A DNA stretch of 5,053 nt, taken from IMG/VR virus record IMGVR_UViG_2671181111_000008; one strand, given 5' to 3'. Source of the stretch: a virus. Taxonomy: Duplodnaviria > Heunggongvirae > Uroviricota > Caudoviricetes. The position numbers were made by a program, and so were the translations under genes. Numbering within the stretch: the stretch's first letter is position 1; each line of letters starts with the position of its first letter. The notes beneath the pieces are model-generated. The model was not told the DNA's origin and made no database searches. It worked only from the letters and a program-made list of their open reading frames with translations. Below, piece by piece: positions 62 through 4,078 of this stretch.

Positions 62-82
62 TTACCGTAATGATGGCGACAT
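62..82 (-). pseudogene. Probable remnant of an SAR-endolysin (R21-like) start: ATG overlapping the holin stop, then MSPSLR and TAA
   Basis: Minus strand reads GAA-TAA-TG: ATG at 82..80 overlaps the S stop (84..82) in a TAATG arrangement, as in lambdoid S-R junctions. It translates M-S-P-S-L-R and then stops at TAA (64..62). From memory, phage 21 endolysin begins MPPSLRK. Downstream sequence does not continue an endolysin-like frame. Confidence 0.35.
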
Positions 83-297
83 TATTCACCTCTCGCAGCC
101 TTACGCTTGTCTTCTCTGATTTTGAAGTACAGATTTGTCAGATAAGTCAGGAAGCCCAGAACCAGACTCCCCAGTACACCAATCGCAGCCCACTGTGACG
201 GACTGACCTGATCAAGCCACTGTAAAAACCAGTAGCCAGCACTGCCTGCGGAGGTGCCGTAGGCAATGCCCGTTGAAATTTTGTCCATGGATTTCAT
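82..297 (-). CDS. S: Class II holin / pinholin, S21-like (71 aa)
   Basis: 71-codon ORF with ATG at 297..295 and GGAGG Shine-Dalgarno (309..305) 7 nt upstream. N-terminus MKSMDK gives the Met1/Met4 dual-start motif. Two hydrophobic segments and a charged C-tail ([13 protein letters not shown]). The sequence matches my recollection of the phage 21 pinholin. Position downstream of Q and tRNAs fits a lambdoid late operon. Confidence 0.85.
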
Positions 298-404
298 AGC
301 CTCACCTCCGCAAATAACGGATGGCGTAGTTTTACACTGAGAAATGAAAGGGATTTGAAAAGAAAAAACCGCAAAAGCGGGCGAAACGATATATACAGTA
401 AGGA

Positions 405-457
405 AAGCACTCTATCCAACAAACCACTCACAGTTAATCGGAATAAAAGCAGAGTGC
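405..457. repeat. Perfect 9-bp inverted repeat (aagcactct / agagtgctt) with 35-nt spacer
   Basis: Arms at 405-413 and 449-457 are exact reverse complements, read directly from the sequence. Confidence 0.6.
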
Positions 458-530
458 TTATGAATGATCGCCTGCCCGAAGGTTAGTATTTCTGCACAGC
501 AATTTTGCAAAAAAAAGCGATCATTCATAA
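458..530. repeat. Perfect 14-bp inverted repeat (ttatgaatgatcgc / gcgatcattcataa) with 45-nt spacer containing an A8 run
   Basis: Arms at 458-471 and 517-530 are exact reverse complements. The spacer 472-516 contains aaaaaaaa at 509-516. Confidence 0.65.
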
Positions 531-537
531 CTTAAAC

Positions 538-583
538 GTCTTTCAGTCACTCCGGGATTTCCCATCATCGCAGACTGAAAGAC
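538..583. repeat. Perfect 11-bp inverted repeat (gtctttcagtc / gactgaaagac) with 24-nt spacer, immediately 3' of the tRNA-Gly-like gene
   Basis: Arms at 538-548 and 573-583 are exact reverse complements. It sits 7 nt beyond the CCA end of the tRNA at 590. Confidence 0.6.
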
Positions 584-589
584 TCTAAC

Positions 590-656
<67 letters not shown>

Positions 657-664
<8 letters not shown>

Positions 665-795
665 NNNNNNNNNNNNNNNNNNNNNNNNNNNNNNNNNNNN
701 NNNNNNNNNNNNNNNNNNNNNNNNNNNNNNNNNNNNNNNNNNNNNNNNNNNNNNNNNNNNNNNNNNNNNNNNNNNNNNNNNNNNNNNNNNNNNNN
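657..795. other. 139-nt run of N (assembly gap or masked sequence)
   Basis: Read directly. It removes the 5' end of the tRNA at 590-664 and about 130 nt of what is otherwise tRNA-cluster spacer. Confidence 1.
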
Positions 796-817
796 ACCTA
801 CTGAGCCAAGTCGGCAC

Positions 818-894
818 TGGACCGCCACCGGGGACTCGAACCTCGCACACTCAACTTAAAGGGTTGACGCTCTTTCCTGATGAGCTAGTGGCGG
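818..894 (-). tRNA. tRNA-like gene with atypical anticodon loop CCUUUAA (C33; anticodon positions read UUU); isotype uncertain
   Basis: Reverse complement folds as a cloverleaf: perfect 7-bp acceptor stem (CCGCCAC/GTGGCGG, C1-G72), D-stem GCTC/GAGC with 9-nt loop containing GG, anticodon stem TCAAC/GTTGA, 5-nt variable loop, T-arm CGAGG-TTCGAGT-CCCCG with one A-C mismatch, discriminator U, encoded CCA at 820..818. Position 33 is C rather than the near-universal U. Confidence 0.6.
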
Positions 895-895
895 T

Positions 896-971
896 TGGTG
901 GCCCTTGCTGGATTTGAACCAGCGACCTGGCGATTATGAGTCGCTCGCTCTCACCACTGAGCTAAAGGGCC
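896..971 (-). tRNA. ileZ: tRNA with CAU anticodon, tRNA-Ile2 (lysidine-type, ileZ-like) rather than tRNA-Met
   Basis: 76-nt cloverleaf: acceptor GGCCCTT/AAGGGCC, D-arm GCTC-AGTGGTGA-GAGC, anticodon loop CUCAUAA (U33, anticodon CAU), T-arm GCTGG-TTCAAAT-CCAGC, discriminator A, encoded CCA. It closely resembles my recollection of E. coli tRNA-Ile2 (ileX), and lambdoid Q-to-S regions typically carry ileZ. Confidence 0.8.
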
Positions 972-980
972 GAGCGCAGG

Positions 981-1009
981 ATAATAACGTTACGAAATCA
1001 ATGTTGCAA
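981..1009 (-). promoter_or_regulatory. Candidate sigma70 promoter for the tRNA cluster (TTGCAA -17- TATTAT)
   Basis: On the minus strand, -35 TTGCAA (1009..1004), 17-nt spacer, -10 TATTAT (986..981), then a GC-rich discriminator cctgcgctc before the tRNA 5' end at 971. The predicted start lies only about 4-6 nt upstream of the mature tRNA. Confidence 0.4.
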
Positions 1010-1069
1010 GCATTCAAAAATCACCCTTATCTCCTCCACCAGCGCATTCACCATGTCTATCCGAGATAA

Positions 1070-1100
1070 GTGGCACAAAAAACCCGCTTGTGGGCGGGTT
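1070..1100 (-). terminator. Rho-independent terminator (candidate tR-prime), bidirectional in appearance
   Basis: Stem aacccgc (1081-1087) / gcgggtt (1094-1100) with 6-nt loop. On the minus strand it is followed by UUUUUUGUG; on the plus strand by ttgtttgctttt. It lies 70-100 nt downstream of the Q-like stop. Confidence 0.6.
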
Positions 1101-1152
1101 TTGTTTGCTTTTGCCATCACGTACAAAATCGGCAAAATATCAGATTTGCATG

Positions 1153-1181
1153 AATATATGCCTTTCAATCTACTTTTGCAA
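1153..1181 (-). promoter_or_regulatory. Candidate late promoter (pR-prime-like), TTGCAA -17- TATATT, overlapping the Q-like stop codon
   Basis: On the minus strand, -35 TTGCAA (1181..1176), 17-nt spacer containing the TAG stop (1172..1170), -10 TATATT (1158..1153). The predicted start near 1146 would give a short transcript ending at the terminator at 1070-1100, the geometry expected of a Q-modified late promoter. Confidence 0.45.
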
Positions 1182-1880
1182 CACTTTGCTTTGAAAATGC
1201 CGTCTTTTTTTTGAACGTGTTCTCATTACAAACAATAAAGCCTCACTATCCAGTCGGTGAAAAATGTGTTTCATTACAACCCAGTGACCAGTAAATGTTT
1301 TGGACCAGTTTTTGGTTGTTACTCCCGCCAGTAATGCCAGCTCCTGATATTCATAACCTTCCCCACCAACCTGGTATTCATAACCTTCCCCACCAAAAAG
1401 TTCTGCTTTTACTGCCTGCGCCGCCAGCCAGATTAATTTTTTCAGGCGTTCCTGCGTTTTCCCTGCAATTTTTCTGGTACCGGATTGAGCATTAAATTCA
1501 TTCCACGCCCACTGTGTTATCGCGATCTGATATTCCCAACAAATACTCCCGCTGTAACACCACAACAACCAGGCTTTATGATGTTCTTCAAGAGACAGAA
1601 CAGCCCGCCGCCACGATGATGTCGAAAACTCAACCGGACTGACCAGAGGAATTGACGTCCCCTTCGCCAGCGATTGCTTTCCCGGGATTGGTGGATTATC
1701 CCGCGTTATCATTTTTCCAGTCACTTCATCGCGGTACCGGATTTTTTTACGCCTGTAACGCCCTGTATCGAACATGGCATTCTCTTGCCAGGCTTCAAGC
1801 TGACCTTTTGTTGCCCCACTCAAATCAGCGGTGGCGATAATGAGCTGCTCACGCACAAACTGTAAATACTGGTTATTCAT
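1170..1880 (-). CDS. Putative late-gene antiterminator (Q-like, about 236 aa), assigned mainly by synteny
   Basis: Long ORF immediately downstream of rusA and upstream of the candidate late promoter, terminator, tRNAs and holin, which is the canonical Q position. The ORF track starts at a GTG (1886); the ATG at 1880..1878 overlaps the rusA TGA stop as ATGA and is the more likely start. I do not recognise a specific Q-family motif, so the function is inferred. Confidence 0.55.
   Translation of the reverse strand: MNNQYLQFVREQLIIATADLSGATKGQLEAWQENAMFDTGRYRRKKIRYRDEVTGKMITRDNPPIPGKQSLAKGTSIPLVSPVEFSTSSWRRAVLSLEEHHKAWLLWCYSGSICWEYQIAITQWAWNEFNAQSGTRKIAGKTQERLKKLIWLAAQAVKAELFGGEGYEYQVGGEGYEYQELALLAGVTTKNWSKTFTGHWVVMKHIFHRLDSEALLFVMRTRSKKRRHFQSKVLQK
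1343..1396. repeat. Tandem 27-bp direct duplication (26/27 identical) inside the Q-like CDS, encoding GGEGYEYQ twice
   Basis: Copy 1 at 1343-1369 (cctgatattcataaccttccccaccaa) and copy 2 at 1370-1396 (cctggtattcataaccttccccaccaa). In frame, giving GGEGYEYQV-GGEGYEYQE in the protein. Confidence 0.9.
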
Positions 1881-2242
1881 GCGCACCCCAGTTCTGTGAT
1901 TTTTATCCCCAGCCGCCCACCAGGAACGAGCTGACCGCGCACAATATTGATTTCATCAAACTGCTCGTCGTCTATAAGTAGTCCAGCATGCGTCAGCGCA
2001 TCCAGCGGTGCCTTCAGGATATTGTCCAGGTCACGACGGCGCTTATCCGGTGGCTCTGCAATAATCTTTATCGCCAGCCTTCCGGACAGGTTTAATTTCA
2101 GTCGCTGCTGGCGAACAATTAGCGCCACATCACGGCGATAACGCTCACCGGCTTTTGATACAAAATATGTGCTGCCACGACGTCGCCAGTAGGTGTTCAC
2201 CGTTGGCGGGTAAGGCAAAACAAATTCTATGCGTTCGGTCAT
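1877..2242 (-). CDS. rusA: Crossover junction endodeoxyribonuclease RusA (Holliday junction resolvase)
   Basis: 121-aa ORF with clear similarity to my recollection of E. coli RusA: PDKRRRDLDN (vs RusA PDRRRRDLDN), LIDDEQ acidic pair, C-terminal GGRLGIKITELG (vs GGRLELTITEMG). ATG at 2242..2240 directly follows the upstream TAA (TAAATG). Confidence 0.9.
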   Translation of the reverse strand: MTERIEFVLPYPPTVNTYWRRRGSTYFVSKAGERYRRDVALIVRQQRLKLNLSGRLAIKIIAEPPDKRRRDLDNILKAPLDALTHAGLLIDDEQFDEINIVRGQLVPGGRLGIKITELGCA

Positions 2243-3301
2243 TTATGCTTTCCACTTCAGAACACCCGAATTTCTCGCGTGCATTAAAAAACGAATCAGC
2301 AACAACAACTGACTACCGTGTTTTTCTTCAAAATCTTTTACCCCGGCGTGTAGTTCGTTATGGCATTTACGACACAGCGGAATAACAAACAAATCGTCAG
2401 CCTTTGTTCCCATCCCTCCCAGTCCATGACCAATGATGTGGTGCGGATCATCTGCCTGATTGCCACACGTCATGCATTTCTGCGTTTTTACCCAGCGCGT
2501 GTATACAGGCATCTCTTCCCGTTGTGGTTTCTGGCGCTGGAGATACTGAGCCGGAGATTCCGGATCAACGGCAATGCTGACCACCGTCTCTTCCTGTGGT
2601 GGATTCTGTTGCTGGTGGGCGTGAGGCAGCGGCGCAAGATTTTTTGTGCGCTGCTTCAGTATGCTGGTGGAGGTCTGCTCTCCCGGCACGATGTCGCTTT
2701 CACGGTACATTGAGCGGATTTTTTCCGCACGCAACCCCAGCGAACGACGTAATACCGCTTCCGGTAGCGCGTCCGCCACCTGATTGCGGACCGCCCACCA
2801 GGATAATTCAGCCAGAGATAATTCACGCTCCTGCGTACCGCTTATTGCGTGACCGATGACGTCAATCATCCATGCTGACAGGTTTTGATGAGCAAGTTGC
2901 TCGAGTGATTCGGATGTCTGGTCACGCAACTGGTTGTCGCAGTGCCAGCACAACACCATTGCGCCGGTACCATAACGGTGAATGACGGTTTCGCTGTGAT
3001 GATAATCGCCGTGTGGCCACTGGCAGGATTTCATATGGCGCAACAGCCAGTCAGACAATGCGCCAGCACCACCAGCAGCACGAATCACCCGTGCGTTACT
3101 GAAAAACGGCAGCAATGTTTTGTCTTCCACCAGCGGCTGGCGAACGGCAGGAACGACCCCGGACGGCAGATTACGCATGCTTTTCGGTTCCGGCTCCACC
3201 AGTACCCGGGTATTGTGGAATACCGGCATGGATTCACGGCCTGGCTTAAGGACCACCAGCCCGAGTTCCGGAACCAGAACAGGTCGAAGTAATACCCGCA
3301 C
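2243..3301 (-). CDS. Prophage nin-region protein, DUF968/YdfU-like with a C-terminal NinG/YbcO-like Cys-His module; probable GTG start
   Basis: 352-codon ORF. C-terminal segment CMTCGNQADDPHHIIGHGLGGMGTKADDLFVIPLCRKCHNELH has the CxxC...H...CxxCH pattern I recall from lambda NinG (Rap) and DLP12 YbcO. Size and position resemble Qin-prophage ydfU. Start is GTG at 3301..3299 with GGAGG (3310..3306) 4 nt upstream; the in-window ATG at 3303 is in another frame. Confidence 0.7.
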   Translation of the reverse strand: MRVLLRPVLVPELGLVVLKPGRESMPVFHNTRVLVEPEPKSMRNLPSGVVPAVRQPLVEDKTLLPFFSNARVIRAAGGAGALSDWLLRHMKSCQWPHGDYHHSETVIHRYGTGAMVLCWHCDNQLRDQTSESLEQLAHQNLSAWMIDVIGHAISGTQERELSLAELSWWAVRNQVADALPEAVLRRSLGLRAEKIRSMYRESDIVPGEQTSTSILKQRTKNLAPLPHAHQQQNPPQEETVVSIAVDPESPAQYLQRQKPQREEMPVYTRWVKTQKCMTCGNQADDPHHIIGHGLGGMGTKADDLFVIPLCRKCHNELHAGVKDFEEKHGSQLLLLIRFLMHARNSGVLKWKA

Positions 3302-3680: not shown

Positions 3681-3748
3681 AAGTGCGGGTGCGTTGAGGA
3701 TGCCTGACACATCAGCGGTGGCGAGGGATTTCTCCCCCGCCGGGTCTC

Positions 3749-3904
3749 TTACTCCTCAGGTTCGTAAGCTGTGAAGACAGCGACCTCCGTCTGGCCGGTT
3801 CGGATTCGTACCTCGCAGAGGTCTTTCCTCGTTACCAGTGCCGTCACTATGACGGTTAAACAGATGACGATCAGGGCGATTAACATCGCCTTTTGCTGCT
3901 TCAT
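3749..3904 (-). CDS. hok: Hok/Gef-family type I toxin (51 aa), HokD/RelF-like
   Basis: Translation MKQQKAMLIALIVICLTVIVTALVTRKDLCEVRIRTGQTEVAVFTAYEPEE matches my recollection of E. coli HokD/RelF. Single N-terminal TM segment and conserved Cys. ATG at 3904..3902 preceded by AAGGAG about 9 nt upstream. The 70-aa track ORF is an in-frame upstream extension. Confidence 0.9.
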   Translation of the reverse strand: MKQQKAMLIALIVICLTVIVTALVTRKDLCEVRIRTGQTEVAVFTAYEPEE

Positions 3905-4078
3905 AGCCTGCTTCTCCTTGCCTTTCGGCACGTAAGAGGCTAACCTACATGTGTTCAGCATGGATTGAGCCTCAGATTAATGTTAAGCGTCTTGCAGGAC
4001 GCGTAATGTTAACTGGGGCTTTTCTCTATCTGCCTTTTGGTGTTCATGCCTGAGACAGATAGCCTCAAGCACCCGCAG
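3905..4078 (-). promoter_or_regulatory. hok mRNA 5' leader (tac-like 5' end, 5' stem-loop, upstream translation-initiation region)
   Basis: Minus-strand sequence gcttgaggctatctg...cagatag...agcctcttac...gcaaggagaag...ATG parallels the plasmid R1 hok leader as I recall it. The 5' segment (about 4078..4063) is complementary, with one bulge, to the 3' UTR segment (about 3700..3685), the fold-back arrangement characteristic of hok mRNAs. Confidence 0.5.
3975..4075 (+). ncRNA. Candidate Sok-like antisense RNA region (ends not determined)
   Basis: By analogy with hok/sok, the antitoxin RNA is transcribed antisense to the hok leader, starting near the upstream initiation region and running toward the hok mRNA 5' end. 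The plus strand here carries weak -10 candidates (TAATGT at 3978-3983 and 4004-4009) and the complement of the hok 5' stem-loop. I could not fix a clean promoter or terminator. Confidence 0.3.

Follow-up and report, generated by a model that had tools for sequence, protein, structure and literature searches.

Within a truncated lambdoid prophage of Shigella flexneri type, the gene for a Q antiterminator carries a 27-bp in-frame tandem duplication that lies exactly where the ancestry of the gene switches from one allele to another. The gene was analysed in a window of 5,053 nucleotides (IMG/VR virus record IMGVR_UViG_2671181111_000008; positions count from its first letter, and the gene lies on the minus strand). 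It is a clean chimera, with the sequence of one group of alleles (A-type) on its left, 5' side and that of a second S. flexneri allele (allele C) on its right, 3' side. On balance we consider it probable that the duplication is a lineage-specific product of an out-of-register exchange between an A-type allele and allele C, and that it has since been carried along as a clonal marker that is most probably selectively neutral.

Results

Anatomy of the repeat

Tandem Repeats Finder reported a period-27 array of 2.0 copies at 1343-1396 (96% matches, 0 indels, score 101), and a repeat search found its two units (Table 1) to be identical at 26 of 27 positions, a match that is far beyond chance for a tandem pair within 5 kb. 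The sole mismatch, A1347 versus G1374 on the plus strand, reads TAT versus TAC on the gene strand; both codons specify Tyr, and the difference is synonymous. An earlier note on this DNA had called the duplication perfect and in frame, and of this description the in-frame tandem pair stands while the word perfect has to be given up. The period breaks exactly at both ends of the array (t1342 versus a1369; a1397 versus c1370), so that the boundaries of the units are unambiguous and flanking microhomology is absent.

Table 1. Positions of the features discussed in the text and the evidence on which each is placed.
Feature	Position	Strand	Evidence
Q antiterminator gene, Q82 family (PF06323), 236 aa	1170..1880	-	ORF and Pfam match
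Repeat copy 1 (first in gene direction), TTGGTGGGGAAGGTTATGAATACCAGG	1370..1396	-	Tandem Repeats Finder, repeat search
Repeat copy 2, TTGGTGGGGAAGGTTATGAATATCAGG	1343..1369	-	Tandem Repeats Finder, repeat search
Q 5' part, A-type ancestry	1370..1886	-	SNP comparison
Q 3' part with late promoter, terminator, tRNAs and holin, allele C ancestry	66..1369	-	SNP comparison
Differences from A-type loci on the 3' side	1347, 1320, 1314, 1289, 1276, 1137, 1023, 973, 587, 398
A8 run (gene strand), where most family members have AAAACAAAA	1205..1212	-	Alignment
Sigma-70-like promoter TTGCAA-17-TATATT, overlapping the Q 3' end; putative PR'	1153..1181	-	Consensus match alone
GC-rich hairpin and T-run; putative tR'	1075..1102	-	Scan, which read the + strand
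tRNA cluster downstream of Q	601..971	-	CAT anticodon, tRNA-Lys(TTT), N-run 657-795, partial tRNA
Phage-21-type holin S (PF04971; pinholin), sole remaining late protein-coding gene	82..297	-	Pfam
hok/sok type I toxin-antitoxin module, complete	3749-4074	-	Hok/Gef PF01848, E = 3e-23; Rfam sok RF01794, 119 bits

The repeat is in frame within the minus-strand Q ORF, which reads ...KAEL-F-GGEGYEYQ-V-GGEGYEYQ-ELALLAG... across it. In the 236-aa protein, copy 1 accounts for residues 162-171, (F)GGEGYEYQ(V), and copy 2 for residues 171-180, (V)GGEGYEYQ(E), which align with the conserved G...Y motif of the Q family. An antisense ORF on the plus strand (1295-1495) also runs across the repeat; it was rejected as a gene, there being no supporting evidence.

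Identity of the gene and its 3' end

The ORF matches PF06323 (Phage_antiter_Q) with E = 4e-88 and 295 bits, against a curated cut-off of 25, which bears out its earlier assignment as a putative antiterminator gene. The match covers profile positions 1-214 of 220 and sets 223 protein residues against 214 profile positions, a surplus of 9 residues. Lambdoid Q antiterminators fall into three unrelated families, of which PF06323 represents the Q82 family; how Q82 works has been named a research priority, and Q82 may not act as a closed nozzle (PMC9388147). The window Q resembles the Q82-family antiterminators of phage 82 and CP-933P in its full-length HMM match and its gene order and, the insertion apart, is ~93% identical to the nearest 229-aa cluster representative; the CP-933P-type Q antiterminator of S. 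flexneri is closely related to it. It differs from this family in its nine-residue loop duplication, seen in none of 120 cluster representatives, and in a frameshifted 13-residue tail that is common to several Shigella and E. coli alleles.

The start listed by the ORF program is a GTG at 1886, six bases upstream of the ATG. The stop codon of rusA and the ATG of Q overlap as ATGA at 1877-1880, an arrangement that suggests translational coupling of the two genes and favours the ATG start (236 aa) over the upstream GTG.

The altered tail is the result of a 1-nt deletion at the A8 run, from AAAACAAAA to AAAAAAAA, that shifts the Q frame. The last 13 residues before the stop are consequently KKRRHFQSKVLQK instead of KQKAAFSKQSVAKVD, and the protein ends two residues early, whereas the normal tail (RSxQK...AK.D) is nearly invariant across the family. 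The deletion is common to the single-copy alleles examined (P0135, P0136, P0137 and the allele C loci) and thus predates the duplication; P0135, with the same deletion, sits in apparently intact prophages. The Q copy of E. coli FDAARGOS_944 has been annotated by PGAP as a frameshifted pseudogene.

The surrounding element

Read along the minus strand, the window holds an unannotated ORF of 140 aa, the hok/sok module, a small ORF, a DUF968/HNH gene, the gene for RusA, Q and a promoter-like site, followed by a hairpin with a T-run, a tRNA cluster that is partly N-masked and a phage-21-type holin gene. Q lies directly upstream of the promoter-like site, the hairpin and the lysis gene, as in lambdoid prophages. 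The TTGCAA-17-TATATT site occupies the position expected for the late promoter PR', and the hairpin is at the place expected for the Q-controlled terminator tR'. In the T-run just past TATATT on the gene strand (~1152) there is a 1-nt deletion that leaves the hexamer intact and makes the discriminator one base shorter; it is common to the two-copy locus L002 and E. coli FDAARGOS_944 and absent in four other aligned E. coli alleles. The tRNA cluster is annotated in relatives as Ile(CAT)-Lys-Thr-Gly, of which the Thr gene and some of the Gly gene are masked by the N-run, and it differs from the Ile-Arg-Arg set of O157 Stx-phage-type loci.

Likeness to intact prophages stops at about position 66 of the window, about 16 bp past the holin stop codon. 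Beyond the holin, related loci carry IS66-family genes and intact relatives carry lysozyme, Rz, terminase and portal genes. On this gene content the element is a prophage remnant that has lost its endolysin and all morphogenesis genes; with the late genes gone, the tRNAs and the orphan holin are the only possible targets of Q in cis. The same holin-IS66 junction occurs in 2457T-type loci and in one allele-C contig, which makes the IS insertion older than the diversity of Q alleles. Two changes upstream of Q mark sub-lineages among near-identical S. flexneri contigs: a 14-bp deletion at 3173-3186 inside the DUF968/HNH gene, which is not called in L009, L011 and L019, and a TT>AA change at 3681-3682.

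Distribution of the two-copy allele

The exact 236-aa protein is recorded as "antiterminator [Shigella flexneri]" in 410 contigs, in 405 blocks of the collection, and the same two copies are found in seven chromosome-scale assemblies as well as in drafts. Five of these chromosomes are closed and of serotype 3a (FDAARGOS_74, FDAARGOS_713, AUSMDU00021847, AUSMDU00022017 and 888048; PMC9455713; PMC8549364), so that every closed two-copy genome of known serotype (n=5) is 3a; a sixth two-copy chromosome, CP045522, is S. flexneri of unstated serotype. Most S. flexneri, including the 2a strain 2457T, carry the single-copy allele P0137 at the orthologous locus (1972 blocks), and single-copy alleles occupy the same locus in 2a, 2b and 3b genomes.

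Outside S. flexneri the gene was found with one copy of the motif. A search of 5,426 complete E. coli genomes (~940 matching records) gave no two-copy locus, the matches listed being single-copy with spans of 690/691 bp for the 717-bp query; a shorter query of 114 bp placed over the repeat has as its best E. coli matches two-piece alignments in which 112 query bases correspond to 85 bp. All 13 phage matches are single-copy. The best 120 protein-cluster representatives, which come from E. coli, Citrobacter, Enterobacter, Salmonella and Leclercia and have a modal length of 229 aa, include none with the duplication, and in alignments of 106 full-length representatives the nine extra columns are unique to the window sequence. 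A scan for the repeat-junction pattern gave 0 matches in genome contigs and 1 in viral contigs, an identical S. flexneri-type contig, and a literature search for this duplication found no description of it.

Because homologues elsewhere are single-copy, the duplication is recent and specific to this lineage, as the earlier note had supposed; its suggestion of a strain- or allele-specific length polymorphism agrees with the confinement of two copies to S. flexneri records, and the ancient repeat that it had set against a recent event, with two diverged copies in all homologues, is not what these homologues show.

Many S. flexneri draft assemblies break in or beside the Q gene (contigs L033-L035 and L046-L053), and hundreds of partial proteins terminate in or close to the GGEGY motif or else ~95 nt ahead of the start codon. 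Among the partial proteins P0059, P0073 and P0122-P0134, several are mosaics of A and C. The broken drafts and the mosaic partial proteins together suggest paralogous prophage copies or assembly chimeras.

Ancestry of the two flanks

The A-type alleles comprise P0135, from apparently intact E. coli and Shigella prophages, and P0137, each with a single copy that has TAC. Allele C is represented by P0138 and many partial proteins, and its single copy has TAT. In the SNP-by-SNP comparison of the Q 5' part, the window differs at 0 positions from the P0135-type loci included, at 3 from P0137 and at 35 from allele C, the last counted over 1370-1900. On the other side of the joint there are 0 differences from the allele-C contig L046 over 1-656 and 796-1369 (1230 nt, reaching beyond the holin-IS66 junction), and the A-type loci differ at 6-9 positions, the set varying by locus (Table 1). 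Identity with the P0135-type loci compared extends over 1348-2670 and gives way to 6-7 differences in 973-1347. P0137 of strain 2457T (AE014073) shares with the window the truncated prophage, the holin-IS66 junction and the C-terminal frameshift; it differs in having one copy (TAC), in His100Tyr, in the 3 nucleotides of the 5' part and in 8-9 nucleotides from the repeat to the holin.

The switch of ancestry therefore falls exactly at the duplication, whose flanks come from different haplotypes, and each copy bears its parent's base: copy 1 has the A-type base (C on the gene strand, G1374) and copy 2 that of allele C (T, A1347). This order, with TAC preceding TAT in gene direction, was found at 12 of 12 two-copy loci. 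All A-type single copies examined have TAC and the allele C single copies TAT; none of the E. coli alleles examined has TAT, and the C-right haplotype reaches at best 96.8% identity in complete E. coli genomes. A mutation after the duplication is probably not the source of the mismatch, since the T is explained by allele C. Each of the two alleles is present in S. flexneri records, allele C only in short draft contigs of at most 2.1 kb, and S. flexneri has other mosaic Q alleles.

The single-copy TAT form

Six contigs code for a protein that equals that of the window minus nine residues (P0136). The five that were retrieved (GCA_018427725.1, GCA_040130405.1, GCA_037413815.1, GCA_013918485.1 and GCA_013942955.1) are all short-read drafts of 2-5 kb in which an A-left part, a single TAT copy and a C-right part follow each other. 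Two of them (L018 and L020) have the TT>AA change at 3681-3682 that is also present in the two-copy contig L010, and a third (L019) has the 14-bp deletion at 3173-3186 seen in the two-copy contigs L009 and L011. P0136 was rejected as the ancestor of the duplication, because its two sub-haplotypes also exist with two copies; their sharing points instead to derivation of P0136 from the two-copy allele more than once. Either true contraction or, equally well, collapse during assembly could lie behind this: at k of 22 or less, the 22-nt stretch common to the copies would close a cycle in a de Bruijn graph, and a path that skips it would give a single TAT. The copy number is thus one in these 6 contigs and two in 410, and a three-copy form is absent.

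Predicted structure

AlphaFold2 was run on the single-copy relative P0001 (106 sequences, mean pLDDT 72). In that model, a helix at 140-161 is followed by a 7-residue loop at 162-168 (pLDDT ~82) and by helices at 169-176, 180-186 and 188-225. The two-copy model (mean pLDDT 64) has the same helices, linked by 15 residues of coil at 163-177 in which pLDDT falls below 50 at 164-176. Confidence in both models is only moderate. The nine extra residues would accordingly fall in a Gly-rich loop between two helices, ahead of a short pair (169-186) that may be helix-turn-helix-like, a predicted answer to the earlier question of whether the repeat lies in a loop or a domain. In the family alignment the downstream copy occupies the conserved G...Y motif, with Val in place of a variable residue, so that the native context of the following helix is kept. 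Across the family, the duplicated motif hardly varies at its G and Y, which indicates that the region matters structurally.

Neither model gave a significant Foldseek match in the PDB (best E 0.55 and 0.70). The only weak fold match with a related function that recurred with both models (residues ~90-225) was to AlpA in an RNA-polymerase-loaded complex (7xyb_G; probability 0.44-0.60, TM 0.40-0.46), a possible hint that the Q82 family may share a helical core with Q21/AlpA-type antiterminators. By family assignment the latter have the same regulatory role as the window Q, from which they differ in sharing no sequence similarity and no significant fold match with it (all E >= 0.5). Foldseek matches to Rex/CadC winged helices are weak leads only. 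When the C-terminal 96 residues were scanned permissively against Pfam, PF06323 alone came up, with no HTH or sigma-4 family, and a sequence search of a 2026 PDB copy found no Q-family structure; a match to Ply in that search (E = 0.005) was rejected as spurious.

Discussion

The duplication, the chimerism of the gene and the mismatch between the copies are together accounted for by one exchange between two parents that have both been observed. In the most likely mechanism, a single step would have joined two diverged Q alleles out of register, by unequal or illegitimate exchange. An A-type parent would have given the Q 5' part and the first copy with its TAC, and an allele C parent, from the same holin-IS66 locus in another S. 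flexneri, the second copy with its TAT and everything downstream. The C/T mismatch would then be a parental polymorphism rather than a later mutation, and the duplicated loop would have persisted as a clonal marker. The direction of descent proposed here follows from parsimony over the observed haplotypes. Exact protein look-ups found no three-copy form, no two-copy form with an A-type 3' part and no two-copy allele C. Against this mechanism stands the joint itself, which has neither microhomology nor homology in the shifted register, so that ordinary homologous recombination is excluded as the route of the exchange.

The earlier note had named slipped-strand mispairing or unequal crossover as the source of the repeat, and the evidence separates the two. 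Slippage, or template switching between sister strands, within one allele would have given a TAC-TAC pair and required a later C-to-T change in the downstream copy; the five SNPs just downstream would be a separate recombination patch, and the two-copy allele would be the secondary source of the T in allele C and in the single-copy TAT form, passed on through recombination or contraction. Slippage is a common source of tandem duplications of this size, mosaicism is rampant among these Q alleles, and four of the five downstream markers (A, C, G and T at 1320, 1314, 1289 and 1276) are found alongside TAC in an unrelated allele (P0004, L017), so that the downstream patch without the T does exist in nature. 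This sequence of events nevertheless needs at least two unobserved intermediates and, for allele C, a donor that is likewise unobserved; a TAC-TAC locus was not encountered, and a two-copy protein with an A-type 3' part is absent from ~15 billion proteins. The single-copy alleles (CTTT/TTGG...CAGG/AGCT) have no flanking direct repeats and share no boundary bases, so the flanking microhomology that would mark slipped-strand mispairing is missing from the single-copy form. That the ancestry switches (from 0/35 to 0/0 differences) exactly at the repeat is also left unexplained, and we regard an origin by slippage as unlikely and favour unequal exchange between the two alleles. There is a negligible chance that the repeat came from an error in the sequencing or assembly of this record: the masked N-run at 657-795 is a sign of record processing and nothing else specific points that way, whereas the identical two-copy sequence occurs in seven independent chromosome-scale assemblies, several drafts and an IMG/VR contig, one of the closed two-copy genomes being a Nanopore plus Illumina hybrid.

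Whatever its origin, the duplication might have been selected for its function, if a longer loop changes or abolishes the activity of Q and, for example, silences read-through into the orphan pinholin; in a variant of this idea, the copy number of the repeat would change back and forth between one and two, as at a contingency locus. In favour of selection, a lineage that has been successful is fixed for the allele (405 blocks), the duplicated motif holds the nearly invariant G and Y, an orphan holin that lacks its endolysin could plausibly be a burden, and the occurrence of the single-copy TAT form on two backgrounds shared with two-copy strains hints at repeated change from two copies to one. 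A clonal pathogen, however, fixes alleles without any need of selection, and the common S. flexneri allele stays single-copy in the same decayed prophage. The contracted form is known from only 6 of ~416 contigs, all of them short-read drafts, and by our reasoning exactly this form would come out of a low-k de Bruijn graph if the path bypassed the repeat cycle; there is no three-copy form, and the context of the downstream helix is kept. Selection for function therefore seems improbable to us. We give still less credence to a full on/off length switch, in which the loop expansion would alter or switch off a Q82-family antiterminator, with the C-terminal helix pair positioned differently on DNA or RNA polymerase, and the repeat would contract at appreciable frequency; if this were true, an orphan pinholin would be silenced in an epidemic S. 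flexneri 3a lineage. The duplication is most probably neutral, given that the element is decayed and has lost its endolysin and morphogenesis genes.

Mosaic recombination among lambdoid prophages is well known, and unequal or illegitimate exchange is familiar as a source of in-frame duplications at the junction. The window is like such cases in having flanks of two haplotypes and a parental SNP in each copy; it differs in that the joint is intragenic, in frame and with zero microhomology, and in that the parents have not been seen in one genome. The allele itself is already present in hundreds of public assemblies and is biologically ordinary.

For work on S. flexneri, the 27-bp length and the C/T pair provide a marker for a lineage that includes serotype 3a, to be used with the caution that short-read assemblies may collapse the repeat or break there. 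More broadly, the repeat shows that mosaic prophage genes can gain in-frame insertions. For the Q82 family, which has no solved structure, this allele is a natural loop-insertion mutant, and it suggests that nine extra residues may be accommodated in the loop ahead of the C-terminal helices, provided that the protein is still active.
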